The notes below the pieces were generated by a model. It was not told the DNA's origin. It made no database searches and saw nothing but the letters and a program-made list of their open reading frames with translations. From Desulfobulbaceae bacterium (lineage in GTDB: Bacteria; Desulfobacterota; Desulfobulbia; Desulfobulbales; SURF-16), in contig JAHLLM010000006.1 in the NCBI GenBank assembly GCA_020444175.1, positions 4,204 to 68,203 of the forward strand: a stretch of DNA of 64,000 nucleotides, in the 5' to 3' direction. Made by a program: the position numbers and the translations under genes. Within the stretch, counting starts at the first letter, position 1; each line of letters starts with the position of its first letter. This document shows positions 2,373 to 20,167 of the stretch, one piece after another.

Positions 2373-2407
2373 GATAAGCTCCGTATATCAAAAAAATTAT
2401 AAATGTT

Positions 2408-3163: not shown

Positions 3164-4169
3164 AGAGTTATCCTTCTTGAAGAGAATTAGGAATTAGGAT
3201 CTTGAAATATCAGATTTTGAAAATTGAAAACCTGGACCTTCATTTTTCTAGCCCCTTTTTTTAATGCCCACTTCAGCACCGGGTTATCAATTCACTCCAG
3301 ATGGAACTGCCCCTTTCCCCCGTTCAATTTTCAGTGAGATTTCACCCAGATCAAAATGGACTTCATTACCAACACAATACCTAACATATATTTGACATAA
3401 ACTCAAGGAGAATAAGGGTCACCCATTAAAAGGCCCCCGTCAAGAGAAAGTACTACCCCATTCTAGAAAACATCTGTTTTCTTGCGAGGACAACTGTCCG
3501 ATTTTGCAGTATTTTGCCAGTGACTCGAATATGTTGCCCACGCCCGTTATTTCGAGTAAGTGGTGTCGTTTCAATTACCGCACCAGTCACCCATCAGGTG
3601 ACCAGCGTCAATTATAATTCCCCCCTAACATAATTTGGCCCCACCACAAGCTTTTCTTCAATTTCTTCATTACCCCAAAAAGACAGAAATAAAATATGCC
3701 CTTCACTGTTGGATCACCAATTAGCAAAATAATGATTTCCATTTTGATTTGGTCTAAAAATAAAAAACAGTGTTAGCTTGTCAGGGAAAAATTTTGCTTT
3801 GCAGGGATATTTACAGGCAATGCAGACTCATGAGAATGATGATGAAACTCAGAAATGTAGTAGATAGCCGGAAAGTGATCAGCTTCTACTTCAATTACAC
3901 CTCTTTAATATGATCTTACTAAGATATGCCCTACAAAGCAACAATTACGAAAATATCGTAATAAATTGGAATTATAAGAAAAAAACTCCAACAACAGCAA
4001 GACATGCTCATTCTGCGTCATCACGGTGTGTTGAAATTTTTTTTCTCCAAAAAAATAGATAACCTCCTCCTGCCAACCTCAATCATTTAAGGATTTCTGC
4101 AACTTAATCTTTATCGTAAATATACGTAACAACCCTCGACGATGGACTCAATGTCAAAACTGAGCCACT

Positions 4170-4354
4170 ATTCACTTCCCGGCATTTACATGCAATATCT
4201 GCACCGGCAACTATTTGTTATGGTGATTGTCTGTTTTGCCGCATGATTACAGATTGTTAGGTTGATTTGGTCCTGTTTGGCAAGTCAGGGAGAAATGATC
4301 AGATTCCGGGAATATGAACAGAAACTGACCAGAAATACGGAATTTTGTAAAAAC
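4170..4354 (+). repeat. non-coding repeat D, copy 1 (paralogue of 53474-53657)
   Basis: By-eye alignment with 53474-53657 gives the same length within 1 nt and shared anchors (attcact, gcaatat, atgattaca). The last ~55 nt are nearly identical: gattccgggaatatgaaca...acggaattttg. Confidence 0.8.
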
Positions 4355-4378
4355 TGAAGGAAGGTGAGGTTAAAATGT

Positions 4379-5494
4379 CTACAAATTTTTATACAACAAC
4401 CAGGCCCGGAAAAAGGGATTGGTAAACCGGTATTCATCTTCAAAATAAAAAACGATCTTTAAATCCATTAAGCGCTCAATCGCCTTTTGGATTGAAGAAG
4501 TAGCAATACCACCAAGACCCTTGGCAAATTTGGCAGATGTAGGAGCCTTCCCGCCCATCCGGGCGAGACCTGTGAGAACTTTCAATTGTTGTCCAGAAAT
4601 GATTTTAAGTGTTGTTTCGTAACCTTTAAATTCATGGGCAAAAATCGACTCAAGAGCCTTTGGGAGATGTTCAAGAGTAATATGTTCTTTTTCTGAAGTA
4701 ATATCCCACAAGGCGTCACAAAATTGCTGAATGTCACCAGGTACATGAGCGCTAATTTCAAAGATCTTTTCCCATACCTCTGGGGCAATCTCTCTTTTCC
4801 CTTTGTTAAATTTCTTTTTGAGAAATGCACGAAAATTGTCTTGGTCGAGTGGGCCAACATCGAGCGATGTTGCCGATTTATAGAAAGGGCTATCAGGATA
4901 GGTAAAGATCTCTACCATCTTGTTCCGGACGCTGCCACTGAAGATATATGATACATCAGAATGAAACTGAACTTTACTCCTCAGAACCGCCAATATTTCC
5001 TTTGCATCTTTGAGGTTGAGAATATCCTGGAACTCGTCAAAGACAACAACAATTGATCTTTGCTTTGTATGATATGAGTAGATTAAATCCAGAACCCCAT
5101 GAATTGAATCTTGGGAAAAGGCAATAGTTTCATCAAAACCAATGGTAGGCATACCTGTCAAAGGATCAAATGAGATGGTTGGGCGGATGTGAGCAAGTTT
5201 TTTGAGGATTCGCTCGACCATACCTCCTTTTTGTTCCATTGACACTATTGCAGAGATGATCCTCTTGATGAAATCGTCTGTTTCCTTAACTTCAAGCAGA
5301 TCAATGTAGATTAAGCGATGTTTTTTAAGTTGCCGGACGCACTCACAGATCAACGATGTCTTGCCAATACGTCTTTCCCCCTGAACGTATACGTTCTGTC
5401 CTTTTGTAATAACTTCGGAAAGACGTTTAATGAGATCAGGTCGCTGACAAAAGTCCTTATCTTGAACAACTTGTCCATATTTGAATGGATTCAT
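4379..5494 (-). CDS. P-loop ATPase, archaeal-ATPase/ATPase_2-like
   Basis: 371-aa ORF. N-terminus is NPFKYGQVV..F.QRPDL. Walker A is GERRIGKTS and the Walker B-like motif is VVVFDEFQ. The C-terminal part looks like a winged helix. Confidence 0.75.
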   Translation of the reverse strand: MNPFKYGQVVQDKDFCQRPDLIKRLSEVITKGQNVYVQGERRIGKTSLICECVRQLKKHRLIYIDLLEVKETDDFIKRIISAIVSMEQKGGMVERILKKLAHIRPTISFDPLTGMPTIGFDETIAFSQDSIHGVLDLIYSYHTKQRSIVVVFDEFQDILNLKDAKEILAVLRSKVQFHSDVSYIFSGSVRNKMVEIFTYPDSPFYKSATSLDVGPLDQDNFRAFLKKKFNKGKREIAPEVWEKIFEISAHVPGDIQQFCDALWDITSEKEHITLEHLPKALESIFAHEFKGYETTLKIISGQQLKVLTGLARMGGKAPTSAKFAKGLGGIATSSIQKAIERLMDLKIVFYFEDEYRFTNPFFRAWLLYKNL

Positions 5495-5715
5495 GAGGGA
5501 ACCGTGCAGGTTGATATTTCATCATATAGGGTTACACAAAACAGTGTAATGCTGTATTATGTAAAAAACAAGAGGGAAGGGAGTTAGTGGAGAGTTCTTT
5601 TCGAAGTTTTTATTTGTCCTAACTACCAGTTTGTGAGCGCAAAGAATTAAAAAAATTGGGTAACACTCTGCAAGAGAGAATTCCATGAGAATTCATGGGA
5701 AAAGGAGTGTTATAG

Positions 5716-7347
5716 ATGCCCCAGAAAAGAAAGAAGACAAAAAGAAAACCTTCCGAAAAATCACCCGGATCTTATTCGTTTGAATTCCGTCTTCGAGTTG
5801 TTCGGATGCGCTTGGAAGAAAAGTATTCTCCCAAACTCATATCGGAAACGACAGGCGTTGGTCGCAGCACCATAAATGCCTGGGTAAGGCGGTATCAACA
5901 ATTTGGCGAAGAAGGTTTGAAGTCAAAGCCCAGGTCGGGACCAGGCCCATCCCGTGTTGACAAGGTAGTTAAAGACAAAATCATTGAGATGAAAAAGTCG
6001 AATCCTGTTTTTGGAGTTCGGCGCATTTCTGATTTTTTGAAACGTTTTTTTCTGCTCAAAGCAAGTCCCGCAACAGTTCACAAAACCCTTTCCGAAGCAG
6101 ACCTGTTAGAGAAGAAACGGCCAAAGCAAAAGAAAAACCCTCCCAAGCCCCGTTTCTTTGAGCGCTCCACTCCCAACCAGCTCTGGCAAAGTGATATCTG
6201 TACATTTCGGTTGGCAGGTAAGAATGCTTATCTGATCGGCTATATCGACGACTATTCCCGGTATATCACCGGCCTTGGTCTTTATCGGAGCCAGACAGCA
6301 GAACATGTGCTGGAAACCTACCGGAGAGCTACTGGAGAATACGGTGTTCCCAAGGAAATGTTGACCGACAACGGCAGGCAATACGTTAACTGGCGAGGGA
6401 CAACCAAGTTTGAAAAAGAACTGCAGAAAGATCGCATCAAGCATATCAGAAGCAGGCCTCATCATCCCATGACCCTGGGGAAAATCGAACGTTTCTGGAA
6501 AACGATTCTGCAGGAGTTCCTGCTGCGCTGTCAGTTCGACAGCTTTGAGGATGCAAAAGAGCGGCTTAAAATGTGGGTCAAGTATTACAACCACCGCCGC
6601 CCGCATCAGGGGATCTGCGGTCTATGCCCTGCCGACCGCTATTTTGAAATCCAGCACGAATTGAAACAGACCATTGCCCGTGGGATTGCCGACAATTGTC
6701 TGGAATTGGCCTTGCGCGGCAAACCTCAGTCCCCATTCTACATGGTTGGCCGTATGAATGGACAGAATGTGGTGATCCGTGCGGAAAAAGGCAAAGTCAG
6801 AATGATGGTTGATGAAGATACAGTGAGCAAAGAGCTTGTTTATGATATGCAAAAGGAGAATAGTGCCCATGACAACCCAGAAGAAAACCAGAACCAGACG
6901 AACCTTTACAGTGGAGGAGAAACTCAAGGCAGTCCTTTCGGTCTGGACGGAACGGCGGACAGGCATGGAGATCTGCCGGGAGATGAACTTGACCTGGTCC
7001 CTGCTGGACCGCTGGCAGAATCAGGCAATGGAGGGGATGTTGTCTGCGTTGGAACAGAAAAAGAAGGAAAAATCCCCAGCTCTGAACGACCGGCTGGAGA
7101 AACTTCTGGAGAAAAAATTGTCTTCCAGGAAAGATGGACTTGGAAAATTGGAGAATCGCTTGGAGGCTGTGCAGCAGAAACGGCGCAGCAAAACTTCTTC
7201 GTAACTCAAACAGAGGATCATGAAAAAGAAGAAGAAAAACCAACTGCAGGAGACAAAGGCACGACAACGGGCGGAGGTCATCATGAAAGTCCGTTCCGGT
7301 CTTATGACTGCTACGCAAGGAGCAGCCGCATTAAGTATATCCCGTAA
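5716..7347 (+). CDS. DDE transposase, integrase-core (rve) type, IS481-like
   Basis: 543-aa ORF. It has an N-terminal HTH (TGVGRSTINAWVRRYQQFGEEGL), DDE-core signatures (WQSDIC, YIDDYSRY, LTDNGRQY) and YYNHRRPHQG. The last ~170 codons are low complexity and overlap better ORFs in other frames, so the true end is uncertain. Confidence 0.8.
   Translation: MPQKRKKTKRKPSEKSPGSYSFEFRLRVVRMRLEEKYSPKLISETTGVGRSTINAWVRRYQQFGEEGLKSKPRSGPGPSRVDKVVKDKIIEMKKSNPVFGVRRISDFLKRFFLLKASPATVHKTLSEADLLEKKRPKQKKNPPKPRFFERSTPNQLWQSDICTFRLAGKNAYLIGYIDDYSRYITGLGLYRSQTAEHVLETYRRATGEYGVPKEMLTDNGRQYVNWRGTTKFEKELQKDRIKHIRSRPHHPMTLGKIERFWKTILQEFLLRCQFDSFEDAKERLKMWVKYYNHRRPHQGICGLCPADRYFEIQHELKQTIARGIADNCLELALRGKPQSPFYMVGRMNGQNVVIRAEKGKVRMMVDEDTVSKELVYDMQKENSAHDNPEENQNQTNLYSGGETQGSPFGLDGTADRHGDLPGDELDLVPAGPLAESGNGGDVVCVGTEKEGKIPSSERPAGETSGEKIVFQERWTWKIGESLGGCAAETAQQNFFVTQTEDHEKEEEKPTAGDKGTTTGGGHHESPFRSYDCYARSSRIKYIP
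6869..7204 (+). CDS. small HTH/coiled-coil transposase accessory protein
   Basis: AAGGAG at 6853-6858 precedes ATG 6869. The sequence TFTVEEKLKAVLSVWTERRTGMEICREMNLTWSLLDRWQ resembles IS3-type OrfA HTH proteins. Lys/Glu-rich coiled-coil tail. Confidence 0.5.
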   Translation: MTTQKKTRTRRTFTVEEKLKAVLSVWTERRTGMEICREMNLTWSLLDRWQNQAMEGMLSALEQKKKEKSPALNDRLEKLLEKKLSSRKDGLGKLENRLEAVQQKRRSKTSS

Positions 7348-7603
7348 AACGTATTACAAGTGGGAAGACCGGGCGCTCGGAGCCATGCTTGGCGGACTTG
7401 AAGACAGAGATTGCGGCAGGCCCGAGCTTCCGGAGCCTTTGCAGGATGAGATTGATCTGAATAGGAAAATTGAACAGCTTCAGCGGGAAAAGGAAATGCT
7501 GGAGCAAAAAATAGAGCTCAAAGACCTTATCCATGAATTTGAACTCGACCGGGTAAGGAAGAACGGATCAAAATCCGTTAAAAAAAAGAAACGACTCAGG
7601 TGA
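7220..7603 (+). CDS. small HTH/coiled-coil transposase accessory protein
   Basis: 127-aa ORF with an HTH-like segment (TATQGAAALSISRKTYYKWEDRA) and a coiled-coil tail. Its stop overlaps the next start (GTGATG at 7600-7605). Confidence 0.5.
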   Translation: MKKKKKNQLQETKARQRAEVIMKVRSGLMTATQGAAALSISRKTYYKWEDRALGAMLGGLEDRDCGRPELPEPLQDEIDLNRKIEQLQREKEMLEQKIELKDLIHEFELDRVRKNGSKSVKKKKRLR

Positions 7604-8658
7604 TGAAAATTATAGAGAAGATGGAGCAAATCAAAAAGGCCTGCCAGGTGAGCTATGAGATGCTTTTCTGCATGGCCGGAATATGTGCCGCCACCTTCAG
7701 GCGCTGGAAATGCAGAATCCAAAATGGACTCGAACCTGTTGCCCGGCCAGGGCCAAAGCCGATTAACCCGCAAGCTATGAAGAAAGCCAGGGAAGAAGTA
7801 AGAAAACTTGAACATCGAACAAAAAGAAGCCATGGCGTTGGTGAGTTGCGCAAAAAACTGCAGAAAGATGTCTCTCGCCGAGACCTTGACCGGTTGATTG
7901 CTGATGCCCGCCAGGAAGCTGCCAGACTCTCAAGGGAGAACCAGTACAAAGTGGATTGGCACCAGATTGGATCTGTCTGGGCAATGGATATCTTTGAAAC
8001 CAAAATGCCGGGACTCCCGTGCAAAGCCTTTGTCCTTACCATTCAGGATCTGGCTTCAGTATATAAATTCCCGCCACTCTGTTCGGAAAAGCAAATCCGT
8101 GGCCAGGAGGTTGCGGCACACCTTGAGCAACTCTTCCGACAATTCAAGAAGCCTTTGTTCCTGAAAATCGACAACGGTGGCAACCTCAACCATAAAACTG
8201 TTTCCGATCTTCTTGACCGGTATTTTGTAATCCCAATTAACAGCCCGGCTTACTATGCACCCTACAATGGTGCTATTGAACATACCCAGGGCGAGTTCAA
8301 AAAACTGCTTCTCGCCCCTGGATACTATGTCTCTTCTTTTAAGGAGTTTACGCTCAGGGTGAAAATTGCTGCCCATGACCTCAACCATCAGGGCAGAAGA
8401 AAATTACACGGCCTCAATTCTTGCCTGAGTTATTTCGGCAAACCGAAAAACAGCTACTCCAACAGAAAGCGAAAGGAGGTGGTCGAATGGATCTCGCAAC
8501 TTGCAGTTGACATCATCGAAAAATCAGGACAAATGAAAAATGAGATCGATGCCTGGCGCATCGCGTGCCGAATATGGCTTGAAAAAAATGGTCTCGTCTC
8601 AATCACAAAACCGCAAAAAGTGTTACCCGGTTTTTTTGAAAATTTCGCTCATAATTAG
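7600..8658 (+). CDS. second DDE (rve-like) transposase
   Basis: 352-aa ORF with N-terminal HTH-like CAATFRRWK. Candidate catalytic residues lie in WAMDIF, KIDNGGN and AIEHTQGEFK. Start is coupled to the preceding ORF. Confidence 0.6.
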   Translation: MMKIIEKMEQIKKACQVSYEMLFCMAGICAATFRRWKCRIQNGLEPVARPGPKPINPQAMKKAREEVRKLEHRTKRSHGVGELRKKLQKDVSRRDLDRLIADARQEAARLSRENQYKVDWHQIGSVWAMDIFETKMPGLPCKAFVLTIQDLASVYKFPPLCSEKQIRGQEVAAHLEQLFRQFKKPLFLKIDNGGNLNHKTVSDLLDRYFVIPINSPAYYAPYNGAIEHTQGEFKKLLLAPGYYVSSFKEFTLRVKIAAHDLNHQGRRKLHGLNSCLSYFGKPKNSYSNRKRKEVVEWISQLAVDIIEKSGQMKNEIDAWRIACRIWLEKNGLVSITKPQKVLPGFFENFAHN

Positions 8659-8780
8659 GCATGCTGCACAATTAGGCCGATCACCAGGTGGCTCTATTAG
8701 GCCGAACATGGAGTGGCTCCATTAAGGCGATCACAGGGTGGCTCTATTAAGCCGAACATGGAATGGCTCTATTAGGGTGG
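8654..8780 (+). repeat. tandem 25-bp repeat array (4 full units plus partial units), probable transposase-binding end
   Basis: Units:
- 8671: attaggccgatcaccaggtggctct
- 8696: attaggccgaacatggagtggctcc
- 8721: attaaggcgatcacagggtggctct
- 8746: attaagccgaacatggaatggctct
- Partial units at 8654 and 8771.
The 25-nt period is not a multiple of 3. Confidence 0.85.
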
Positions 8781-9314
8781 AAATTAACAACCCTTCAGAA
8801 ACAAGCCTTTGAGAATACATTTTTTAATTTGTTGAGGCTTCATACCGATAACCTTGAAGCTGTTGAACAATCATCGATTGAAACACATCCAGGGGGAGTT
8901 GAAACTGAAACCAAAATAACCAGAGGGAAAAGTGCTTTTAAAATTTTATATGAAGACTTTAAGCTAATCCTTGGTGGATATTCAGGAGGTATACATCATA
9001 CAACGTATGATAGGCACTATCAGGATATGTACGACCAGCATCAAATGGGCCTGGAACAATATTTCACAACGATTCAAAGTATAATTAAATTTATTACCGA
9101 TAATGATATCGATGATAAAAACTTCTATGTTAATCTATATAAAGCCCATTTTTCAAAATATGAACTTTTGTTGTTTTTGTACTACGAGACGAGTATTCAC
9201 GCCAACCCCTCTTTCAATAAACTATTAGTTGATTTTCAATTTTTCAATTCTCTACCGACTAAAGACTTGATAAACGAAGATGATGTTAAGGATCTAGATG
9301 GGAACTTTCCCTAG
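8763..9314 (+). pseudogene. putative abortive-infection protein (putAbiC-like), N-terminally truncated
   Basis: FENTFFNLLRLHTDNL, GKSAFKILYEDFK and YVNLYKAHFSKYELLLFLYYE...FNKLLVDFQFFNSL match my memory of the putAbiC family core. The usual N-terminal transmembrane part is missing, and the ORF begins inside the repeat array. Confidence 0.55.
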
Positions 9315-9435
9315 AGTGCATGTATATTCCTTTGTGAGGTGTTCTGACAAAATAAAAGGAATTTCTGAGGTGGTCCCTGTCCGAACAACTGGGGCCACCT
9401 CTTCACCTAAACTGAAAAAATACCCAACATCAAAT

Positions 9436-12400
9436 TTAGGAATCGAGAATTATTTCTTCGTAAATTTTTGTAGCTGCTTCAAAATTTGGAGCTAAAGGAT
9501 GCTTGTTTTCATCATCAAAACTTAAAAGTGTCTTATTTAAAATGTAACGGACTTTATGCATCTCACTTGCGCCCCAGGAGCTCCACGTATTGTCATTAAT
9601 AATCTCCAAGGCTTTTTTGTGGTAATAATCAGGAAGGGAGATATCTTCCCAAAAAATAAGCTTTTCCTTGAGCATGATTTTTCTTAAATCTTTTGCATAT
9701 TTACGGCATTTTCTATCAATTACTGAAAAATCATCGTCTTCATAGCTCGCTGTTTTCATTATTAACCAGTTAACCAATGAAAAGTGCCACCAATTAGCAT
9801 TTTCATTGCATGGGTCTGAGCTATCATTTTGTAAATAATCTAAAATTTTTCTACCGGATAAATCCTTAGGTTTCCCTGAGAAATTTAACAGCTCAGCCAT
9901 TATTTCAATGCTTCTCGATAAGTAATATAATGTTTGCACTGGTCGCACATAGGATGCTTCAGTTGCAGCTGTACCGCTAACGGATATTATTCTATGACAA
10001 ATTGTCAAAAATTCTCCCATAGTAACTGACGTTACATTCTCGAGATTGTACCAATCTGAAAACCTATCAGGGCTATCTGTAATTGTTTCATCTCTATCTA
10101 TATAAAAATTTACTTTTTCAGTATCAATTTGATAATCAACCATATCACTAAATTTCTTTAAAGCTTTTCTGTTGGAAAATAAAACATTTATATGGACTTC
10201 TCCCATCTCAATTAGTTTATTCAATAAGCGAAAAGACCACTCCCACTCACTACTACGACTGCCAGGCAGAAAACCGTATACTGGAGAATCAACCTTACTG
10301 TCTAATCGTCGATCAACAATGCTAAATATTTCGTTTAGTTCTGAATAGAGATTATAAATCTGAGGAAATGATATTCTTTTAACAATAGGAGGAGAGATAT
10401 TATTCTTTTTTAAAAGCTTATCTAAGCATTGTTTGTACAATTTTTGTTGGTAATAAGTGATTGTAAAAATATAATTGCAATTTTCCAACACTCCACAAAT
10501 TCTATTATCATCCAAATAACTATATAATTCGGCTTGAGGTGGCACATAGTATATAACAGGAATTTGCGGAAAGTATTTTTGGGTAAACTTCGATAACTCT
10601 GTATTTGTAAATGAGGAGTCTGAAAGAACAATTAGGTCAGGCTGTAACCTTAGAATTTTATTTACAGGATAAAGTTTAACTAATTGCTTGATCATTTTAG
10701 GGACAGTATCTAAAATTCCAATAGCAGCCCCGGATTCTTCTTTGTCAGAGTACAAATATGGAACACCTTTTCGAGAAAAATGGTGTCCCCCGTTTAAGGC
10801 TACAAATCTTAAATGAATCTTTCCTGAATATTCTTGATTGATTGATCCGCTTGATGAAGTGCATTCTATTAGATTAGTAGCTAAATCGACTAGTTTCTCT
10901 TGACCAGCAACGGAATCGCTTGATAATAGGACTGTTATCTCATGAGAATTTTCTGTTTTTATTAAATTACTCGAATGAATTGCAGTATTTGAAAAAAGTT
11001 CTGCTCGATTTCGCCATAACTTTTGTGGTTGGCCTAATTGGTCATAAATTGCAGATAATTCTCGGAACCATGGAGTCAATAATAGGGACCTTATACCCGT
11101 AATCAACAAATTGGACACATCAAAGTATCTAAATCTAGAAACTAAAATATTATTATCAGCATTGACAAGGTCGGGAAACATGCGTCTTGTAGAGGGTAAC
11201 AAAGATTTATGTTCGATGTTAAAAATCTTTAAAAGGCGTTGTTTTAGAAGTAGTATAAAACTTTCATCAATATTTTCTCTTAAGACTCTTAGCAACACAG
11301 GTTGGATAGTCTTGTCATGACCTTCTTTTGCTCTATTGTGTAAAAATGAGCATATAAACTCGCCTTTCACACCATGCTTTTCTAATGATTCAAAAATATG
11401 ATTGATCTCAGAGTCTGCTTTTTTCCCCTTGAAAATACTGTCAACTAGTAAGTGCATGCCTTGGAATTCAGTCTTCCATGCCGATGCAAACAAAAGCTCC
11501 GTCTGAAATAACAAACAGCTAAGAGAGCTAAATATCAAAACAGTTACCAATAGATAAAAAATGAAATTAGGCTCTATTCCTCTTAAAAGGGGGTAGCTAA
11601 TTAGGATAATTATTACAATTTTAATGAAAGAAAAAACTTTTTGTTTTGACCTATCAATTCTAAATTTAATTTTGGGCCAACGCTTGAAGCTAAAGTTAAT
11701 ATCTCTAGTAAAATCAGTATAATCAAAATAAAAAAACCATGAAGAAATGCATATAAAAAAGGTTATTATTGAAGAGATAAACAACAAAATGAGGTTAATC
11801 AGAGGGATAGGCTCCTTGTGTAAGAGGAATAATAAAGTTTCAATATTGAGACCTAAATCTCCGGGTAAGAGTACTCTGTTTGAACTATACATATCGTAGA
11901 CTAATTGACCACCCACGATTTTCGCCATTACTCCTAGTAAAATTACTGGAATAGTAAAAAACAAAACATCTAATATTGAAAAAGCTTTTTTATATCGACG
12001 AAAAATGAAGTTATAAGCGAGAAAAAAGACCAATGGAACGAAAATTAAAACGACCCACGGAATAGGTGTAAATAGATCTGATGAGAGAGAAAAAACGTAA
12101 GAAAATATAAAACCCAAAGCAATTGAATGCCAATGGCCGAATTTATTCTCACCTTTGAAATATGAAAAATATGAAAAGAAAAGAAATGTTAGAAAACAAA
12201 AGGTTAGTGTGAATGGTATAAAACCGTTCATAACATTGAATAACGAGAAGCTCAGTGGCAAGAGCAATGCCGCACTAGTAAAAATCCGCCCAGCAACCTT
12301 TTTTTTCATAAAAAAAATTGTGTATATGACAATCACAATTAACGGATACAAGAGAGGAACGAATACGCTTATCGATTCGAAATTTAAATTAAAGTAGATT

Positions 12401-13734
12401 AAAGAATTATCGATGAATTTGTCGAGACCCTCTTTGTAGTAAAGTAATAACTTTCCTTTTAAATTATCCAGGTGGATTATTGAGTAGCAAAAAAAAGAAA
12501 AAACCAACCAAAGGCACATATAAACTTTATATTTCTTTCTTTTTTTTATTTCGTTATTAACGAGATATATTTCTTTTACTTTAAAACTAATCAAACCAAG
12601 CATAATGATACTGATAGTTTCTAAGTAATACAGGTCAAAAGATAAAAATGAGAAAATTGCAAAACACATACTTATTAAAAAGTATGTTGAAATCATAAGG
12701 CTAATCAAAAAGTTGCTAATGAGATTAACCTTGTTAAACACATACATCTCTCCATCAAAAAACATATTGTTAATTGATGCTATGAGATAAAACATTATAA
12801 AGTAAGGCATGGCGCTTGCTATAATTAATGCAATATCATCAATTATAGGGATGGTTACTTTTGAATACCATTCAAACTTGTAAATTATCGAAAAAAGAAT
12901 AACCAGAAAGCACAATAATGTACTCCAAAATAAATATGTTCTATTTTTAACAACATAATTGACTATTGATTTTGGTGGTAAATTCCCCGTGGGTGATTTT
13001 GTCATTACTGGAACAGGGTTTTCTGGTGATACGATTCGGGACTCAACAAGTGGCGCAAAAATTGTTAATATTTTTTTTTCTAAAATCCATAATGCCAATA
13101 CTAACTCCAATAAAAGTCCAGTAATTGCCTGATAGAGAGAAATTCCATCGATTTTATTCCAGTAGAAATACGTAGATAAAATTGGAATAAAAGACGCTAT
13201 TATCATTCCAACAACTAATGAGAATTCATTTCGAGTTGTCCAGTGGGGGATAAAATATTTAACGGCCTTTCCAATTGATCGAGACCGAGTGAACAACTTT
13301 ACATTTTGTAGAGCTAGTAAATAGTTAAATTTAGAACTGCTCCTGTGAGTTGCTTGATTTCTAATGTGATGTGTAGCAGTTAATACTTGATCTGTATAAA
13401 AATTAACCCCTAGTATTAAAATGTAATATATAATGAACCCTAAAATTATTACCCCAAAACATAGTTCATTAGTAATTAACTTATCATTATTAAATGACAA
13501 TATATAAAGACCGAAAAAGGAAACTATTGTTGACGAAATAGCAACGATATATTTATGAAGAAATGACCTATAATCGCTCCTTATTTTGCCTGATTGATTG
13601 AAATCTGCTGAAATAAACGGATCATTTGCTTGTTCATCGATTATTTTTTTAATTAAATCTATACTAGGATTCATCTGATCAGATGAATTTTTCTTTTTTT
13701 CTTCCCAAAACATTATTAAATCCCTATTTTCCAA
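9436..13734 (-). CDS. giant polytopic membrane protein with a C-terminal LpxB-like (GT19-like) glycosyltransferase domain
   Basis: 1432-aa ORF. The first ~750 aa are almost continuous hydrophobic segments. The C-terminal part carries PDLIVLSDSSFTNTE...IPVIYYVPPQ, GFLPGSRSSEWEW and VSGTAATEASY, in the same order as the LpxB motifs (PDVFVGIDAPDFN, LLPGSRxxEV, ASGTAALE). The gene is visibly far more AT-rich than its flanks. Confidence 0.7.
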   Translation of the reverse strand: MENRDLIMFWEEKKKNSSDQMNPSIDLIKKIIDEQANDPFISADFNQSGKIRSDYRSFLHKYIVAISSTIVSFFGLYILSFNNDKLITNELCFGVIILGFIIYYILILGVNFYTDQVLTATHHIRNQATHRSSSKFNYLLALQNVKLFTRSRSIGKAVKYFIPHWTTRNEFSLVVGMIIASFIPILSTYFYWNKIDGISLYQAITGLLLELVLALWILEKKILTIFAPLVESRIVSPENPVPVMTKSPTGNLPPKSIVNYVVKNRTYLFWSTLLCFLVILFSIIYKFEWYSKVTIPIIDDIALIIASAMPYFIMFYLIASINNMFFDGEMYVFNKVNLISNFLISLMISTYFLISMCFAIFSFLSFDLYYLETISIIMLGLISFKVKEIYLVNNEIKKRKKYKVYMCLWLVFSFFCYSIIHLDNLKGKLLLYYKEGLDKFIDNSLIYFNLNFESISVFVPLLYPLIVIVIYTIFFMKKKVAGRIFTSAALLLPLSFSLFNVMNGFIPFTLTFCFLTFLFFSYFSYFKGENKFGHWHSIALGFIFSYVFSLSSDLFTPIPWVVLIFVPLVFFLAYNFIFRRYKKAFSILDVLFFTIPVILLGVMAKIVGGQLVYDMYSSNRVLLPGDLGLNIETLLFLLHKEPIPLINLILLFISSIITFFICISSWFFYFDYTDFTRDINFSFKRWPKIKFRIDRSKQKVFSFIKIVIIILISYPLLRGIEPNFIFYLLVTVLIFSSLSCLLFQTELLFASAWKTEFQGMHLLVDSIFKGKKADSEINHIFESLEKHGVKGEFICSFLHNRAKEGHDKTIQPVLLRVLRENIDESFILLLKQRLLKIFNIEHKSLLPSTRRMFPDLVNADNNILVSRFRYFDVSNLLITGIRSLLLTPWFRELSAIYDQLGQPQKLWRNRAELFSNTAIHSSNLIKTENSHEITVLLSSDSVAGQEKLVDLATNLIECTSSSGSINQEYSGKIHLRFVALNGGHHFSRKGVPYLYSDKEESGAAIGILDTVPKMIKQLVKLYPVNKILRLQPDLIVLSDSSFTNTELSKFTQKYFPQIPVIYYVPPQAELYSYLDDNRICGVLENCNYIFTITYYQQKLYKQCLDKLLKKNNISPPIVKRISFPQIYNLYSELNEIFSIVDRRLDSKVDSPVYGFLPGSRSSEWEWSFRLLNKLIEMGEVHINVLFSNRKALKKFSDMVDYQIDTEKVNFYIDRDETITDSPDRFSDWYNLENVTSVTMGEFLTICHRIISVSGTAATEASYVRPVQTLYYLSRSIEIMAELLNFSGKPKDLSGRKILDYLQNDSSDPCNENANWWHFSLVNWLIMKTASYEDDDFSVIDRKCRKYAKDLRKIMLKEKLIFWEDISLPDYYHKKALEIINDNTWSSWGASEMHKVRYILNKTLLSFDDENKHPLAPNFEAATKIYEEIILDS

Positions 13735-13839
13735 GATAATTATTTAGCAGGGTGTTGAAAAAGTCCTATTAAAAATGACAATTAAATCCTTATAGTGTAA
13801 AATATAACATATTGATAATACACCATAAAGGGTAACTAT

Positions 13840-14040
13840 ATGCGCGGTTCAGATGTTCAACAACAAATGTTGTTCAGTTATATTTCTCCAGAAGCGAGAG
13901 TCCCACAGAATCATCCGTTAAGGTCGATTCGAGAAATGACAAATAAGGCACTTGAAGAATTATCGTCTTTGTTAAAGGAAATGTATTCAGAAGTAGGCCG
14001 TCCGACGATATTTCAAAATCGAGATAGCTTTTACATATAA
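13840..14040 (+). pseudogene. IS5/IS1182-family transposase N-terminal fragment
   Basis: QQQMLFSYISPEARVPQNHPLRSIREMTNKALEELSSLLKEMYSEVGRPTI matches the conserved N-terminal (DUF772-type) segment of IS5/IS1182 transposases. The ORF stops after 66 aa. Confidence 0.7.
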
Positions 14041-14389
14041 GGGCCTTCTTGACTGACAAAAAGAGTCAGCACTTTTTAACGGCAAAAAAATGTTACGTCA
14101 ATATATTACTTACAAGCTTGATTAGCATAGACGGAGGAGAAAGCCAGAAACAATAAGCACTATCAATGCGTTATGAATAATGTTAGGGAATATTTTTTTA
14201 TGTTTAAGCTGAGGAGGCATTTGCCTCTGTAGTGATAATGCTGCAGGACTCAATCTCCTTCCCGTCTTCAGGGTTCCTCCAGTTCTCCCATGCCGGCCAT
14301 GGCAAAGAGTCTTCCATTCTTCATTTTGATAAAGTGGGGGGGGCTTTCCTTCCTGTTTCAATTCATAAAGCTAACTGCTTGGTTAGCTT

Positions 14390-16105
14390 TTAGTCTGCAT
14401 CTAGTTCCGTAGAGAAGGAAGTCCAAACCGGTACATGATCAGAATACCCGTCTAAGTAGGTGCCTATATTTTCTGGTTTATATACAGTTGTGCTTTTTTT
14501 AATTAATTCCAAAGTATTTTCAGGACGCAACATTATGTGATCGATGAGTGAGGCAAAATTGCCGATCAAATAAGAAACATCGTTGGAACCGGCGGAGAGT
14601 CTGGTTTTCCATGTTTGAGTGAAAAAACGCCCTTTGCGATATATAGAATCGATAGAATCGTCCGTAGCCTCGGCGTTAAAGTCTCCGATTAGAATGATAT
14701 CTTGTTCTCCGGATTCTGAAATGAGATTATCGATGGCATCCAGTAGTTCACGTGCTTGCTTGGTGCGCACATAATCGGAGTCATCTCCTCCTTTTTGTGA
14801 TTTGAGATGCACAGCAACAACCCAAAAGTCGAATTCACCTGCTTTGAATTTAGCGGCCAATGGCTTGCGTAAATAACCAGTACTACTTGAACTTTCAAGT
14901 TCTCGAGCTTCCGAAAGAAGTGCAACTTCATCAGCATCGTAGGCGATTACTATGTTCTGCTTGCCTCCGGACTCGCCGGGAAGAAATACATAACCATCGT
15001 CTTCCATATATCGTTTGAGCCATTTATATTGCTGGTCCGATATTTTTCGCTCTTTATCATCATATATAAATGTTCCATTCATGCTTGTGTTGACTTCTTC
15101 AAACGCTACAATCTCTATGTCTAGGGCTTCTGTCACAAAATCTGCAATCCGTTTTACATCATCTTCTTCACGCAACTCCTGACGATAACGCATTTCACTC
15201 CCCAACCAATAAAGGTTGTAAGTCCCAACTTCTATTTTTGACGGAATTTCAGCTTCAGCTTCTTCAGCTTCGACCGATTCGAATAGAGGGCTCGGCGAGT
15301 CCGTGGTTCCCCAAATAGCCGCAACGAATTCTGGGCGATCTATAAAAGGGTTCCGGTTATGTTGATATGCTTCATAAATTAGATCGTTACGCCGACGTTC
15401 GTCGTCGTCAACTGGGTCATCTTCGTGCCATTGTAAGATCTGTGAGCGTATTCCAAGAACAGGATCCTTGTCCGAGTGGTGTTGACCCGTTTCAACTAAT
15501 TCAAGATCTGGTACTCCATTATCACCTTCGTAACGCGTGGCCATATAAAGAACCATACGTGCTACATCTCCTTTAGCCGCATCCCTCGGCTCCCAGGTCC
15601 AGACATTATTACCTTTTTTACATTCTGTATGACCCTTATAGTTTCCATGTGTGTCTTCAAACAGTTCGCCTCCCTCAGCAAAGGAACGGTTATTGCGATT
15701 GCTATTAGTCGAAACGTCAGAAGCACGTAGATGATGCAGATCAGTTCCTGCACCTTTACTTGTCCCAAAATTTCCGAAGGATTTCGGCCAAACATGTTCT
15801 CGATTCCAACCTTTTCCATCATCATATTTTTTGGCAGCATCCATTTTGAAGTTACTATAAATACCAATAACCATATCTGGATTATCAGGATCCCGATCCA
15901 ATATTTTTAGGGCTTCATAAGCCTGTGAATAACTCAATTCTTCATGGTCATCGATGATCTCGTGTAGTACTTGTTTTAATGTTTCGCCGACTTTTCCTTC
16001 TGCAGAGCTGTAGTAACCAACTGGCGGCTCGGCAAAGGCCAAAACTTTTAAATGAAATAGAAAAGCAACAGTCATACAAATTGAAATTCTCTTGAATAGA
16101 ACCAT
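14390..16105 (-). CDS. secreted bifunctional nuclease: Endonuclease I domain plus endonuclease/exonuclease/phosphatase (EEP) domain
   Basis: GGAGGG precedes ATG at 16105, followed by a signal-like MVLFKRISICMTVAFLFHLKVLAFA. Endonuclease-I motifs are NREHVWPKS, DLHHLRASD and NRNPFID. The C-terminal EEP signatures are VGTYNLYW, EEVN, LIGDFN and YSDHVPV. Confidence 0.85.
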   Translation of the reverse strand: MVLFKRISICMTVAFLFHLKVLAFAEPPVGYYSSAEGKVGETLKQVLHEIIDDHEELSYSQAYEALKILDRDPDNPDMVIGIYSNFKMDAAKKYDDGKGWNREHVWPKSFGNFGTSKGAGTDLHHLRASDVSTNSNRNNRSFAEGGELFEDTHGNYKGHTECKKGNNVWTWEPRDAAKGDVARMVLYMATRYEGDNGVPDLELVETGQHHSDKDPVLGIRSQILQWHEDDPVDDDERRRNDLIYEAYQHNRNPFIDRPEFVAAIWGTTDSPSPLFESVEAEEAEAEIPSKIEVGTYNLYWLGSEMRYRQELREEDDVKRIADFVTEALDIEIVAFEEVNTSMNGTFIYDDKERKISDQQYKWLKRYMEDDGYVFLPGESGGKQNIVIAYDADEVALLSEARELESSSSTGYLRKPLAAKFKAGEFDFWVVAVHLKSQKGGDDSDYVRTKQARELLDAIDNLISESGEQDIILIGDFNAEATDDSIDSIYRKGRFFTQTWKTRLSAGSNDVSYLIGNFASLIDHIMLRPENTLELIKKSTTVYKPENIGTYLDGYSDHVPVWTSFSTELDAD

Positions 16106-16324
16106 AATCCCTCCGTATCTATATTTGATAAAATCTACAACAACCTTAAGGTCCATTTCCTGTCTCAATTTCCATCCATTTAATTTTCTACGGCAGCAAA
16201 CTCATTTATTGGGATGAAGTCCTCATATGTGCCAAATTGCCACATTTGCATCCATGCACACAAATGAAATACTTCTATTTGACAGGATTATCAATGATGA
16301 AATAAAAAAATGAGGGAGGTGAAG

Positions 16325-16453
16325 ATGAAAAAATATATCTTGGTCGTTTGTCTTATGTGCTTATGTGGCTTTATGGTTCCCGAACAGCCAGAAGCGGCCA
16401 TCATCCCGACAGAAGAGTATGGCCTTATTCTTTATGATGATGTGAAATTGTAA
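16325..16453 (+). CDS. possible 42-aa signal-peptide-bearing small protein
   Basis: GAGGGAGG lies upstream of the ATG. The product is MKKYILVVCLMCLCGFMVPEQPEAAIIPTEEYGLILYDDVKL. It is too short for the ORF track and is unsupported otherwise. Confidence 0.25.
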   Translation: MKKYILVVCLMCLCGFMVPEQPEAAIIPTEEYGLILYDDVKL

Positions 16454-16636: not shown

Positions 16637-18844
16637 TTACCCAGAGTGATGATTGACTATCGACTCAACCAACTTCTTCGCGCCATTAGAATTCAGAAAT
16701 TTGGACGCATAGTCGATGGTTAGAAGTTCCTCCGCCAAAAAGTGGTCATATTTTTCGGTTATTTTGTTACGAACACGGCTGGCAAGGTATTTTTCGTCTG
16801 ATATGCCAGAGGCAAGGATTTCTTCCAATATGTTGAACACTTCCTCTTCGCTTTTGTTCTCAATTGAAAGGACGAAATTGCTCTTTTCGACACGAAATCC
16901 TTCGTTCATCAATTGGAGCAACAGGGTGTAGATGCTTTGGTCGCCATCCCAGCAAAACAGCAGCACATCCTCGCCAGCCTGGACCACCGAGCGCCTTGCA
17001 AGACCCATCGAGTGAAAGTTCTGGCGACCTTCCAAAAGAAGTTTTCTTGACTTTGCATCAAGGAACGAGAATTGGTCTGCCCCAGAGTAAATATCTAGCA
17101 TGGCTGATCGTATGCGCTTATGGACACGTGCCCCATGGCCCCCGAACATAGGCGGTTTGCCAGCTTTTGTAGGGGTGAGTTCTATGACTTTACGTTGGCT
17201 ATCTACCGCTACCACAACCCAGCGTCTTCCTGCGAATATTAGATAGCTTCCCTCTGTTACAGGGTATTCGATGGGAAGGCTCCCAAGCGTTTTGTTGCCC
17301 GAAATCAACTTGTATTCTTCTGGAGTTTTGAACGCCGAAAAGAACTCGTAATGGTTCACTATCCGCTCGCCTTTATCTCCAAGAAATAAGGTTCCGTCAG
17401 AGGCTTGAGAAATGAGGTCTTCGGCTGCTATCGCCCGCAGGAGGTCACCATAGGTAGCTTGTGTGATTTTGTCGAAAGATCCGCCTTTGCAGAGAAGTTT
17501 CCAGAGTGGTAGAGGGCGGCCCCCGCCACGCTCTGCCAGTACTGAGAGGGTTTGCTGAACGAGGGTTGAAAAGTCGAGCGCATCCGCCTGCGGCGGTTCA
17601 TACCATTTCTCTAAAAGCAACTGAACCATCGCAATCGACTGAAAAAGCTGGGCTCTTAGCCTGTCGATGACAGAACTTTTCGGCGTCAGTTTCTCTTCCC
17701 TGACGTATAGCCGCATTATGCCAGCCTCGCCAGCCCTTCTGCCGGAGCGCCCTAAGCGCTGGCGCAGGGCTGCAACGGAGGGAGGGGAGTCCAACTGGGC
17801 AATGCTAGAAACATTGCCCACATCGATGCCAAGTTCTAATGTGTTTGTACAGACGATAGAAGTCGGGCGGCTTTTGTCCTTCAGACGGATTTCGGCTTCT
17901 TCCCGAATCTCTTTCGATAAGCTGCCGTGGTGAGGGAGAAATTCATTTGGAACACGGTCATCTTCAGAAAGCCTTCTGAGGATGTCGGCGCATATTTCAA
18001 CATCTCGACGGCGGTTGGCGAAGATAAGGTTGTCCGAGCCCCGCAACACCTTAAATATGTGTGCGCAGATGTCTTTCAGGTTCCCATCGCCGACATCCTC
18101 ATTTTGACCGTTAAGCTGTGCTTCATCGCCAGAGACAACGCAGCCCCTTATTTGGAGGCGTATCTCCTGGGCGTCGTCATCGGATTGGATCTGTTTTACG
18201 AAAGGTCCCCCTTTGGGACGCATGAACTCAGCAGCAAGTCCCATGTCGCCCAGGGTGGCGCTGAGTCCGATTCGAGGGATACTTCGCCCGGTTGCCACCT
18301 CTGTCCTGTGGAGGAGAGATTGGAGTTGCCGGCCACGTACGCTGCCGATAAAAGAGTGCAGCTCATCAATCACTACGTGAGAAAGACTGCCGAACAAGCG
18401 TCCGATCTGGTGACCTCTGATTACGAACAATGCCTCCAGCGATTCGGGGGTGATGATCAGAATTCCTGAGGGTTTCTTTAGGACTTTGTGTTTTCTGTTT
18501 TGGGCTACGTCACCATGCCATTTGTGTACGGCTATCTTCAGCCCTTCGCACATCTGCTCGATGCGCCGGAATTGATCGTTTATCAGCGCCTTCAAGGGGC
18601 TCACACAAAGAACGTCTATCCCGGTTGAAGACTTGTCAACCAGCTGGGAACATAGCGGAAGGAAGACAGCCTCCGTCTTTCCACCGGCTGTCGCCGCGCT
18701 GATAATCAGATCACCTCTACCGCACAGGACGAAGCGGATGGCTTCCTCCTGGATGTAGTGCAGTTCCTCCCATCCCTCACGCCAGATCCACTTGCGGACC
18801 TTCTCGTGGAGGAGATCAAAAGAGCTGGAGCTATCTTCAGTCAT
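16637..18844 (-). CDS. sngC: Shango-type DEAD/DEAH (Lhr-like) helicase
   Basis: 735-aa ORF with helicase motifs AATAGGKTEA (I), VIDELH (II), SATLGD (III) and QRLGRSGRR (VI). It starts 6 nt after the preceding ATPase gene ends. Confidence 0.8.
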   Translation of the reverse strand: MTEDSSSSFDLLHEKVRKWIWREGWEELHYIQEEAIRFVLCGRGDLIISAATAGGKTEAVFLPLCSQLVDKSSTGIDVLCVSPLKALINDQFRRIEQMCEGLKIAVHKWHGDVAQNRKHKVLKKPSGILIITPESLEALFVIRGHQIGRLFGSLSHVVIDELHSFIGSVRGRQLQSLLHRTEVATGRSIPRIGLSATLGDMGLAAEFMRPKGGPFVKQIQSDDDAQEIRLQIRGCVVSGDEAQLNGQNEDVGDGNLKDICAHIFKVLRGSDNLIFANRRRDVEICADILRRLSEDDRVPNEFLPHHGSLSKEIREEAEIRLKDKSRPTSIVCTNTLELGIDVGNVSSIAQLDSPPSVAALRQRLGRSGRRAGEAGIMRLYVREEKLTPKSSVIDRLRAQLFQSIAMVQLLLEKWYEPPQADALDFSTLVQQTLSVLAERGGGRPLPLWKLLCKGGSFDKITQATYGDLLRAIAAEDLISQASDGTLFLGDKGERIVNHYEFFSAFKTPEEYKLISGNKTLGSLPIEYPVTEGSYLIFAGRRWVVVAVDSQRKVIELTPTKAGKPPMFGGHGARVHKRIRSAMLDIYSGADQFSFLDAKSRKLLLEGRQNFHSMGLARRSVVQAGEDVLLFCWDGDQSIYTLLLQLMNEGFRVEKSNFVLSIENKSEEEVFNILEEILASGISDEKYLASRVRNKITEKYDHFLAEELLTIDYASKFLNSNGAKKLVESIVNHHSG

Positions 18845-18850
18845 CTTGCC

Positions 18851-20167
18851 TTATAGCGTGAAAGAAGTGAGTTCGTCGTCCTCATCTCCTTCATCCTCCA
18901 TCCCTAATAAAGTGCTGGGATCGATGTCGGCTTTGAATTCGAGACCCCCCAGATGGTTCTCCCATCTTTGGTCTGGATGCTGAAGCAAAATCACGAGCAG
19001 GTCCAAGAAATATTTGGCAAAGTTCCTTGGTGTAGCGAAGTGAGAGGCCCCAACCTTGTTGTAGCAATAGTCCATAAAGGCTTGAATCCCTTGGTCGCTT
19101 ATAAGCTCTCTACCCGAATCCGCCGAGGCGACAACGATTCTTAACTTTTGAAGGAGGACGAAGGTCTCTTCTTTAGACAAAGTCGTAAGACGGATCACTG
19201 GGCCGCTCATATCCACAAGCCCGTTTTTAGCGAAAGAATTCTCCGCAAGCCTCGATTGGAGGGCTTCATAGCTGAAGAGACCTCTTCGGGTATCTGTGAG
19301 AAACTCAGGTGTGCCTCCCATCAGGAACCCCAGGCCCTCGGTAGAGCCCTGCAGGCAGTCGTTCAGGATGCGCAGAATCTGTTCGTAGTTGGCATTGCGG
19401 GACTGGGTATGGGAAAGCTTGTAAAGGTTGACCATCTCATCGAGGCAGACTAGCAATCCATCGTAACCTGCGAGTTTGACAAATCGTGCCATAAGTTTCA
19501 GGTAATCATAGAAACCAGCGTCATCGACAAAAGTGCGCACACCTAAAGCTGCCCTGGCGTCTGTTTTGGTTGTAAACTCACCCCGTAGCCACCGCACGGC
19601 ATCAGCCTTCAACTGATCGTTACCGGTGTCATGACCACGCCAGTATGCCCCGATAACATCTGCAAAATCGTAACCACCCACCATCTCGGATAGCTTCTCC
19701 AACCGTTCAGCGATTACTACACCAGGATTGGTTCCATTTGCCTTGGCTTCACCTAAGGCCGAAGAAACGAATCGCTCCACCACTGAAGCCAAGGCATTGC
19801 CTTCCGGCTTGGTGCGAGTAGACATGTTGCGCATCAACTCAGCGAAAAGGCTACGCGCCTGCCCGCCCGTACCATGTAGCCGTCTATTCGGATCAAGGTC
19901 AGCATGTGCTGTCACGAGTTTTTTGTGTAATGCGACTGTACGGACAAGTGAGAGGAAAAAGCTTTTCCCCGAGCCGTAGTCTCCGATTATCAGGCGGATT
20001 CCGGAGCCGCCATCTATGATTCTGTTGATATCGTTTATAAGAGCTTCTATCTCTCGAACACGTCCCACCTGTACGTGTTGCTGGCCAATTCTAGGCACCA
20101 CGCCGGCACGCAAAGATTGTATGATAGCGTCTCTCTCTTTTGGTCTAATCTTCGTTGCGTTGCTCAT
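18851..20167 (-). CDS. sngB: Shango-type P-loop ATPase (DUF2791-like)
   Basis: Walker A is GDYGSGKSFF and Walker B-like is LLVCLDEM. The start was moved to the ATG at 20167-20165, which overlaps the upstream TGA (ATGA). The longer ORF-track start would overlap sngA by 61 nt. Confidence 0.8.
   Translation of the reverse strand: MSNATKIRPKERDAIIQSLRAGVVPRIGQQHVQVGRVREIEALINDINRIIDGGSGIRLIIGDYGSGKSFFLSLVRTVALHKKLVTAHADLDPNRRLHGTGGQARSLFAELMRNMSTRTKPEGNALASVVERFVSSALGEAKANGTNPGVVIAERLEKLSEMVGGYDFADVIGAYWRGHDTGNDQLKADAVRWLRGEFTTKTDARAALGVRTFVDDAGFYDYLKLMARFVKLAGYDGLLVCLDEMVNLYKLSHTQSRNANYEQILRILNDCLQGSTEGLGFLMGGTPEFLTDTRRGLFSYEALQSRLAENSFAKNGLVDMSGPVIRLTTLSKEETFVLLQKLRIVVASADSGRELISDQGIQAFMDYCYNKVGASHFATPRNFAKYFLDLLVILLQHPDQRWENHLGGLEFKADIDPSTLLGMEDEGDEDDELTSFTL

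Follow-up and report, generated by a model that had tools for sequence, protein, structure and literature searches.

A GT19 (LpxB)-like glycosyltransferase domain fused to a predicted 18-helix membrane domain in a mobile, defence-rich island of a Desulfobulbaceae bacterium

The 64,000-nucleotide stretch analysed here (positions 4,204 to 68,203 of contig JAHLLM010000006.1, assembly GCA_020444175.1, from a Desulfobulbaceae bacterium; referred to below as the window) carries on its minus strand a gene for a protein of 1425 residues that joins a large polytopic membrane domain to a glycosyltransferase (GT) domain resembling LpxB. CAZy lists, to our knowledge, no activity for family GT19 other than that of lipid A disaccharide synthase. 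The explanation of the protein that we place first, tentatively and as a plausible rather than a firm one, is a membrane-integrated inverting glycosyltransferase that would take a uridine diphosphate (UDP)-sugar as donor on the cytoplasmic side of the inner membrane and act on a lipid-type acceptor other than that of LpxB.

The gene is real and intact. Read mechanically, the open reading frame (ORF) covers 9436..13734 on the minus strand and gives 1432 residues counted from a TTG, the length quoted in a preliminary description of this DNA. That frame is present, but translation probably begins seven codons downstream, at an ATG (13713) that is preceded at 7 nt by the Shine-Dalgarno-like motif AGGGA and is also the first codon of the database copy (P0001, 1425 residues). 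The chance of an open frame of 1432 codons at the base composition of the gene is P ~1e-49. An assembly chimera, named in the preliminary description as a refuting case, was rejected on the Logan assembly of SRR14069905, which is 100% identical over window positions 1-16426, possibly being built from the same reads as the NCBI assembly. The parts of the gene are given below from the N-terminus onwards, with residues numbered according to the 1425-residue version (P0001) and not the 1432-residue ORF.

9436..13713, minus strand: whole gene, 1425 codons plus stop, identical in Logan contig L001
13549..13713, minus strand: predicted cytoplasmic N-terminal tail, residues 1-55 (family alignments)
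11509..13548, minus strand: polytopic membrane domain, residues 56-735, about 18 predicted transmembrane (TM) helices (hydropathy and positive-inside counts)
10969..11508, minus strand: juxtamembrane motif and predicted all-helical cytoplasmic linker, residues 736-915, about 180 residues (alignment, AlphaFold2)
9724..10968, minus strand: GT19 (LpxB)-like GT-B domain, residues 916-1330 (Pfam, hhalign, AlphaFold2, Foldseek)
9439..9723, minus strand: C-terminal helical extension, residues 1331-1425, about 95 residues (AlphaFold2 secondary structure, alignment)

The fusion itself stands as first described, but the architecture is not simply two-part, since the conserved linker of about 180 residues lies between the membrane and GT domains.

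Sequence profiles, profile-profile alignment and fold all place the C-terminal domain with LpxB. PF02684 (LpxB) is the only Pfam family above threshold in the window protein, at 31.1 bits (gathering cutoff 22.6; E 1.5e-7), and the match covers residues 965-1188 and profile positions 24-231 of 374. When a profile built from family members only (A5) was aligned by hhalign with one built from three TIGR00215-positive LpxBs (A6), 182 columns were paired at 97.7% probability and E 2.1e-12. The GT part of the AlphaFold2 (AF2) model consists of alternating beta-alpha units with a pLDDT of about 80 and has the GT-B fold that LpxB shares, and the C-terminal extension is placed like the C-terminal helices of LpxB, but is longer. 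Foldseek ranked E. coli LpxB first to third in the PDB (5W8N, 5W8S and 5W8X, E 7e-11 to 5e-10); next came the LpxB-like subunit from complex I of Tetrahymena, and after it UDP-GlcNAc 2-epimerases. LpxB is the best match of the domain by sequence, profile and fold alike, and the three motif strings from which the resemblance had been noticed are indeed present in the order given, at residues 1025, 1051, 1147 and 1245.

The resemblance does not extend to orthology. Against the NCBIfam lpxB equivalog TIGR00215 the window protein scores 24.2 bits with a cutoff of 190.25, and the long-form LpxB model NF002173 and TIGR03492 give no match at E<=1; the GT part of the closest relative (P0002, from locus L004) reaches 22 bits against TIGR03492, whose cutoff is 219. 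LpxB is a peripheral, stand-alone protein of about 380 residues, whereas here the domain ends an integral membrane protein of 1425 residues with 18 predicted TM helices. Usually lpxB is encoded alongside other lpx/fab genes, in an lpx operon; the fusion gene lies in a mobile defence island where its neighbours are insertion sequence (IS) remnants, an AbiC-like ORF and nucleases. Judged from its sequence, the domain is of GT19 lineage but not an LpxB orthologue, because the GExSGD motif and the acyl-groove tryptophans are absent and the score is far under the equivalog cutoff.

What these absences mean can be read from the residues of the active site, for which equivalences were taken from a MAFFT alignment with E. 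coli LpxB. D98 of LpxB is the predicted catalytic base, P198-G199-S200-R201 contacts the UDP pyrophosphate with R201 being essential, T277 contacts the beta-phosphate, E281 the ribose hydroxyls, and N316 stabilises a C-terminal turn (PMC5785501). S17, in the GExSGD loop, is important for activity, and V125/W126/W128 line the acyl-chain groove (PMC5785501). The corresponding positions in the window protein, in P0002 and in the two other full-length relatives (P0003 and P0004, in that order) are as follows.

10618..10620, minus strand: D1032, equivalent to LpxB D98; D in P0002, G and G in P0003 and P0004
10255..10266, minus strand: P1150-G-S-R1153, equivalent to LpxB P198-R201; PGSR in P0002, AGSY and AGTS in P0003 and P0004
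9958..9972, minus strand: T1248 in the motif TAATE, equivalent to LpxB T277; T in P0002, A and G in P0003 and P0004
9958..9972, minus strand: E1252 in the same motif, equivalent to LpxB E281; E in P0002, V and I in P0003 and P0004
N1315, equivalent to LpxB N316; N in P0002, S and S in P0003 and P0004
10900..10923, minus strand: SSDSVAGQ in place of the LpxB GE(x)SGD loop, with E15 replaced by S934, S17 by A936 and D19 by Q938; T, A and Q in P0002, not conserved in P0003 and P0004
10522..10542, minus strand: PPQAELY in place of LpxB SPSVWAW, with V125/W126/W128 replaced by A/E/Y; not conserved in P0002, P0003 and P0004 either

The proposed catalytic base and the residues that in E. coli LpxB bind UDP and stabilise the leaving group are retained in the window protein (D1032, PGSR1150-1153, T1248 and E1252), and all eight retained positions are identical between it and P0002 at an overall identity of only 38-39%, which argues for selection on the active site and suggests that catalysis matters in this subfamily. 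The GT domain of the window protein looks catalytically competent, and we infer that it is active. Its substrates are probably unlike those of LpxB, since the GExSGD loop has been replaced. The glutamate at the position of W126 is invariant across the family, and because the otherwise tryptophan-lined acyl groove carries this residue, a common soluble UDP-sugar is the more probable donor than UDP-2,3-diacylglucosamine. The original assignment to GT19 is borne out by Pfam, hhalign and Foldseek, but not as far as LpxB itself, two of whose specific features are missing.

The same comparison bears on the most conservative explanation, in which the protein would be a membrane-anchored LpxB paralogue that converts UDP-2,3-diacylglucosamine and lipid X to lipid A disaccharide 1-phosphate, as a backup or for a modified lipid A variant. 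Such a role would fit LpxB being the sole Pfam family matched, the conserved catalytic base and UDP-binding residues, and a host that is probably a diderm of the Thermodesulfobacteriota/Desulfobulbaceae, as judged from one possibly mobile gene, the SNF2 gene of the window, whose closest relatives (87-74% identity) are in metagenome-assembled genomes of that group. Longer forms with an N-terminal extension are also on record in NF002173. However, the replaced loop includes the position of S17, the acyl-groove residues have become A/E/Y, the equivalog score is a small fraction of its cutoff and NF002173 is not matched; almost no genome carries the gene, which sits here in a mobile AT-rich patch instead of an lpx operon. 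We consider this explanation very improbable. NF002173 / PRK01021 (a 610-residue model) and TIGR03492 show that GT19-type domains occur with N-terminal extensions and in paralogous families of unassigned role. Of NF002173, only positions ~228-589 are covered when genuine LpxBs are aligned to it. The extension in the fusion protein amounts to about 915 residues with 18 predicted TM helices.

The membrane domain determines where a GT domain of this kind could work. Hydropathy gives 18 hydrophobic segments between residues 56 and 735, so that the N-terminal half is polytopic as had been proposed, with about 18 and not more than 20 TM helices; several cytoplasmic loops of 47-60 residues separate them. 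Lysines and arginines in alternate loops number 49 on the cytoplasmic side and 14 on the other in the window protein, and 41 and 12 in P0003. Both termini of the membrane domain are predicted to be cytoplasmic, and this topology would leave the GT domain facing the cytoplasm and its UDP-sugars. The conserved motifs of the membrane and linker regions are listed here.

13585-13650, minus strand: ADFxQSGK(I/V)RSxxRxxLxKY, invariant motif of the N-terminal tail, residues 22-43 (family alignments)
13585-13608, minus strand: ADFxQSGK(I/V)RS, family-invariant part of this motif
13225..13404, minus strand: predicted cytoplasmic loop between TM2 and TM3, residues 104-163, with the highest conservation in the family (alignment)
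13342-13377, minus strand: ATHHIRNQAxHR, motif of the TM2-TM3 loop
13219-13248, minus strand: PHWTTRxEFS, motif of the TM2-TM3 loop
13003..13041, minus strand: SRxxxPxNPVPxM, predicted cytoplasmic motif of the TM4-TM5 loop (family alignments)
11440-11478, minus strand: WxTEFxGMHLLxD, juxtamembrane motif after the last TM helix

Within the TM2-TM3 loop (13219-13377) four histidines are invariant (HHxxxxxxH and PHW), as are residues of the types R, N, Q, T and E. This histidine-rich loop could be a metal- or ligand-binding site, with no counterpart in known proteins. The N-terminal motif bears a weak likeness to a single Ca-binding repeat from the type I dockerin in PDB 3ul4_B (E 0.007); the match is probably due to chance since the tail is predicted to be cytoplasmic. 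Searches of PDB sequences with the family-only profiles (A3, A5, A7 and A8) and with the single protein gave only marginal matches, to this dockerin and to 3exc (E 0.045), and both were treated as chance. The linker is kept in every family member, with 43 invariant columns among the five sequences of alignment A8, and is predicted by AF2 to be helical at low confidence. No relatives of the membrane and linker parts were found in Pfam, NCBIfam, PHROGs or the PDB, and AF2 modelling of the two together (residues 1-930) failed, with a pLDDT of 44 and a pTM of 0.27.

Two other classes of membrane enzyme were considered for these motifs and rejected. The catalytic motifs of GT-C enzymes face the periplasm, whereas the conserved motifs here are all in predicted cytoplasmic loops; without a Pfam match besides, a GT-C glycosyltransferase or O-antigen ligase-like enzyme was discarded. 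Histidine boxes of the PAP2 phosphatase or desaturase type do not fit HHxRNQxxH/PHW/SR in spacing or in residue set, on an informal comparison with the signatures of those enzymes.

In view of the above, the following course of action can be proposed for the membrane-integrated glycosyltransferase. The GT domains of the window protein and of its closest relative in L004 would be active inverting glycosyltransferases with a UDP-sugar donor, and their acceptor would be membrane-embedded and probably a lipid. The 18-TM domain would tether the enzyme permanently, while the conserved cytoplasmic loops and the linker would position it on that domain. Through these loops and the linker, and by a logic like that of MprF, the membrane domain may present the acceptor or carry the product across to the outer leaflet. 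An envelope glycolipid would thereby be changed in an accessory and strain-specific manner, which in a defence island could alter phage adsorption. The surface modification or receptor masking suggested in the preliminary description is speculative.

MprF consists of a large N-terminal polytopic domain and a C-terminal cytoplasmic lipid-modifying domain, and the two are separable (PMC2774229, PMC8131360). The likeness to the fusion protein is architectural only and extends to the split genes of L004, which are comparable; there is no sequence similarity, the only Pfam family found at E<=1 in the three full-length members being LpxB. MprF transfers an aminoacyl group whereas the fusion protein is predicted to transfer a sugar, and flipping by its membrane domain is proposed by analogy only. 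LpxB itself acts at the cytoplasmic face of the inner membrane, as the fusion protein is predicted to do. A different precedent for a GT19 fold within a membrane complex is the LpxB-like subunit of Tetrahymena complex I (7tgh_T1, 8gym_T1, 8b6f), which had the highest target-normalised TM-scores of the fold search (0.49-0.55). It is a eukaryotic mitochondrial accessory subunit, presumably non-catalytic, and is not fused to a polytopic domain.

Relatives of the fusion protein are few. An exhaustive HMMER scan with residues 748-1425 (ORF residues 755-1432) gave 13 matches at E<=1e-3 among 1.84 billion representatives, and apart from weak ordinary LpxBs these belong to only four other loci.

L002: P0003, 1617 residues, full length with the same architecture, all GT active-site residues lost
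L003: P0004, 1637 residues, full length with the same architecture, all GT active-site residues lost
L004: P0005 (membrane part and linker, without the N-terminal module) and P0002 (GT part), GT active-site residues retained
L005: P0014, P0010 and two further ORFs, at least four frameshifts, GT active-site residues lost

The genes for P0005 and P0002 are adjacent with a 4-nt overlap, an arrangement that supports the membrane and GT parts acting together. The L005 homologue lies at 680-5199 on the plus strand and runs through frames 1, 3, 1, 3 and 1; it is either a pseudogene or the product of an indel-rich assembly, and belongs to the catalytically degenerate subfamily. P0003, P0004 and the L005 copy have an insertion of 100-170 residues in the N-terminal half of the GT domain. 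Other searches added nothing to the set. The word-indexed homologue search returned only the query when run with the whole protein, whose hydrophobic low-complexity sequence saturates the prefilter, only P0014 with the profile of the N-terminal module, and nothing with the linker profile. Neither family pattern scans of the viral, genome and metagenome contig collections nor tblastn against phage records turned up a relative, and tblastn against plasmids gave one weak Legionella lpxB match for the C-terminal part and none for the membrane part. No Pfam, NCBIfam, PADLOC, PHROGs or PDB entry spans the fusion and the literature on fused, TM-bearing or extended LpxB yielded nothing relevant, in keeping with the initial impression that a GT19-like domain tethered in this way had not been described.

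The survey of homologues that had been proposed as a check also examined gene neighbourhoods. A second defence island was found at L004, and three of the four relatives have a degenerate GT domain. L004 is the only relative with useful flanks, which contain the following genes (whole defence set at 3615-7616, minus strand, and 8620-9261, plus strand).

class I short prokaryotic Argonaute (pAgo; 481 residues, 494 bits) and an upstream HNH plus APAZ-like protein (438 residues)
downstream TIR protein (434 residues) and a PDC-S06 ATPase fragment

The short-pAgo set forms an unusual three-gene arrangement. Both loci with informative context, the window and L004, are defence islands, though a pair of loci does not suffice to test for enrichment. 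The loci have no neighbouring gene in common, and the protein thus appears to act alone.

These neighbourhoods, and the degenerate relatives, speak for an alternative in which the protein would be a defence or abortive-infection membrane effector. Here a conserved cytoplasmic module, made up of the N-terminal tail, the TM2-TM3 and TM4-TM5 loops, the linker and the N-terminal half of the GT fold, would sense a ligand, for instance a phage product, a nucleotide-sugar or a precursor of lipid A, and then gate or disrupt the membrane through the TM domain, with glycosyl transfer being dispensable or secondary. The window has a complete Shango system, the putAbiC ORF, HipA and AbiEii, bearing out its description as a defence-rich island, and L004 has the set given above. 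The distribution over hosts is extremely patchy, with genes of the family ranging from 32 to 57% GC, and the decayed copies (frameshifted in L005, split and N-terminally truncated in L004) suggest the turnover typical of defence genes. The three members without catalytic residues still keep the cytoplasmic loops, the linker and the N-terminal GT half, and the Tetrahymena subunit (7tgh/8gym) is a precedent in the PDB for the GT19 fold in a membrane complex. On the other hand, the fusion protein matches no PHROGs family and none of the families in PADLOC-DB v2 at E<=1, whereas its neighbours (SngA/B/C, and pAgo in L004) do match the latter; no homologue occurs in phage records, the informative neighbourhoods number just two, and 18 TM helices far exceed those of known defence membrane effectors. 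The window protein and P0002 moreover keep an apparently complete active site in spite of their low identity. We regard such an effector as unlikely, though with a weight that is not negligible.

A broader proposal, which we consider doubtful, is that the family constitutes an unrecognised single-gene, membrane-embedded defence-island system. Its cytoplasmic core (N-terminal tail, HHxRNQxxH...PHWTTR, NPVP loop and linker) would couple a GT19-derived domain that binds a lipid or nucleotide-sugar to the 18-TM domain. Of the two subfamilies, one would have a catalytic GT19-derived domain and the other a pseudoenzyme.

Several observations weigh against the membrane-integrated glycosyltransferase. 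Of the four relatives, P0003, P0004 and the copy in L005 no longer have any of the catalytic and UDP-binding residues, so that glycosyl transfer is not the property conserved throughout the family. Among the three full-length members (window protein, P0003 and P0004) the share of invariant positions is 49% in the cytoplasmic TM2-TM3 loop, 34% in the TM4-TM5 loop (SRxxxPxNPVPxM) and 31% in the juxtamembrane motif and linker, but 18% in the N-terminal GT half, 7% in the C-terminal GT half and 6% in TM5-16. By this alignment, conservation across the family centres on the cytoplasmic loops and linker, not on the site of glycosyl transfer. A flippase or channel fold is without support, as the AF2 model of the membrane domain is unusable and TM5-16 are barely conserved; both the lipid acceptor and the translocation step are purely inferred. 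The alignment used for modelling the GT domain contained true LpxB sequences, which biases the fold towards LpxB, and an hmmsearch of PDB sequences with the family-only profile A5 found nothing. The promoter scan detected no promoter-like site upstream of the gene on its own strand.

For the history of the gene, base composition and the immediate flanks are informative. The gene has a GC content of 31.6% and a GC at third codon positions (GC3) of 28.8%, while the rest of the window is at 43% GC and neighbouring genes have a GC3 of 0.35-0.56 against 0.29. The lowest 1-kb GC bins of the window are those from 9 to 14 kb (0.29-0.35), so the AT-rich island of the preliminary description is the lowest-GC stretch, but it is not the only such patch, others lying at 32-34 kb and 53-54 kb. 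It spans ~9000 to ~14100, taking in the putAbiC-domain ORF (34% GC) as well, within an island that is a 42% GC mosaic. The elements next to the gene are these.

5716..8658, plus strand: two sets of rve-type (DDE) transposase genes at the border of the AT-rich patch (Pfam rve/HTH matches)
8763..9314, plus strand: putAbiC-domain ORF, 183 residues, convergent with the fusion gene (Pfam PF16872, 48.9 bits; weak PADLOC AbiP match)
13840..14010, plus strand: IS5-family transposase remnant, first ~57 residues only (tblastn, 61% identity to annotated IS5-family transposases)
14390-16168, minus strand: secreted-type fusion of Endonuclease_1 and EEP (Exo_endo_phos), 592 residues (Pfam)
16637-22425, minus strand: complete Shango anti-phage system, SngC/B/A (PADLOC)

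Mobile-element debris is found on both sides of the gene, as had been noted, with the putAbiC-domain ORF between it and the transposase sets. The IS5-family remnant adjoins the gene on its upstream side and has no Pfam match at E<=0.01. Both transposase gene sets are bracketed by a 19-nt inverted repeat (5649-5667 / 8619-8637, 89% complementary), whose right arm sits within the 7600-8658 ORF and leaves the IS boundaries uncertain. An operon with the upstream Endonuclease_1-EEP gene was rejected, since a 650-bp spacer containing the IS5 remnant separates the two and their GC contents differ (0.42 vs 0.32).

The low GC3 and the flanking IS remnants point to horizontal acquisition of the gene. 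They would also fit a silent passenger or decaying remnant, an intact ORF no longer expressed or functional in its host, as would the strongly foreign composition, the missing consensus promoter and the frameshifted and truncated relatives. Against this stand the 1425-codon frame, open at 31.6% GC with the chance probability given above, the intact catalytic residues and the Shine-Dalgarno-like motif before the ATG, and we regard a silent gene as improbable. What probability remains goes to functions outside the readings discussed here.

The surroundings extend this picture, the whole window being a mosaic of mobile and defence genes. The Shango system lies directly upstream of the fusion gene on the same strand, with PADLOC scores of 893 bits for the SngC helicase, 592 for the SngB ATPase and 332 for the TerB-domain protein SngA. 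Further genes of the window are listed below; no tRNAs and no Rfam families were found across it.

3-2372: giant RTX-repeat protein running past the window start, 2183 residues in L001
27251-28588, plus strand: fusion of EEP and a lamin-tail domain, 445 residues
28873-29694: NYN-domain protein
35265-38454, plus strand: three tandem, overlapping tyrosine-recombinase (Phage_integrase) genes
42154-43371: HipA toxin
45798-46658: AbiEii toxin
47306-48220, plus strand: fourth tyrosine-recombinase gene, 9 kb away from the trio
49552-53169: IgGFc-binding-like protein, 1205 residues, GC3 0.28
56661-59339: SNF2/DUF3670 helicase

The tyrosine-recombinase genes suggest a mobile element of the recombinase-trio type that delimits part of the island. 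The nuclease fusions at 14390-16168 and 27251-28588 are both unusual.

The GT19 fold is known. In the libraries and papers searched, however, there is no description of its attachment to an 18-TM domain by way of a new linker, of the changed motifs that face the substrates, or of a division into an active and a degenerate subfamily. About 915 residues of membrane domain and linker are without detectable relatives outside the family, and the family shows a transition from active enzyme to pseudoenzyme. It is extremely rare, with five loci, all from uncultured material, so that its practical impact is uncertain. A GT19-type domain with kept nucleotide-binding and catalytic residues, an altered acceptor/donor surface and an 18-TM fusion would suggest that this fold has a second reaction or role. 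If the broader proposal of a single-gene defence-island system were true, GT19 would gain such a role, either in envelope glycolipid remodelling that blocks phage or in ligand-gated membrane disruption. Should the link with defence islands hold in a larger sample, the family would be a candidate for a new envelope-based anti-phage function.

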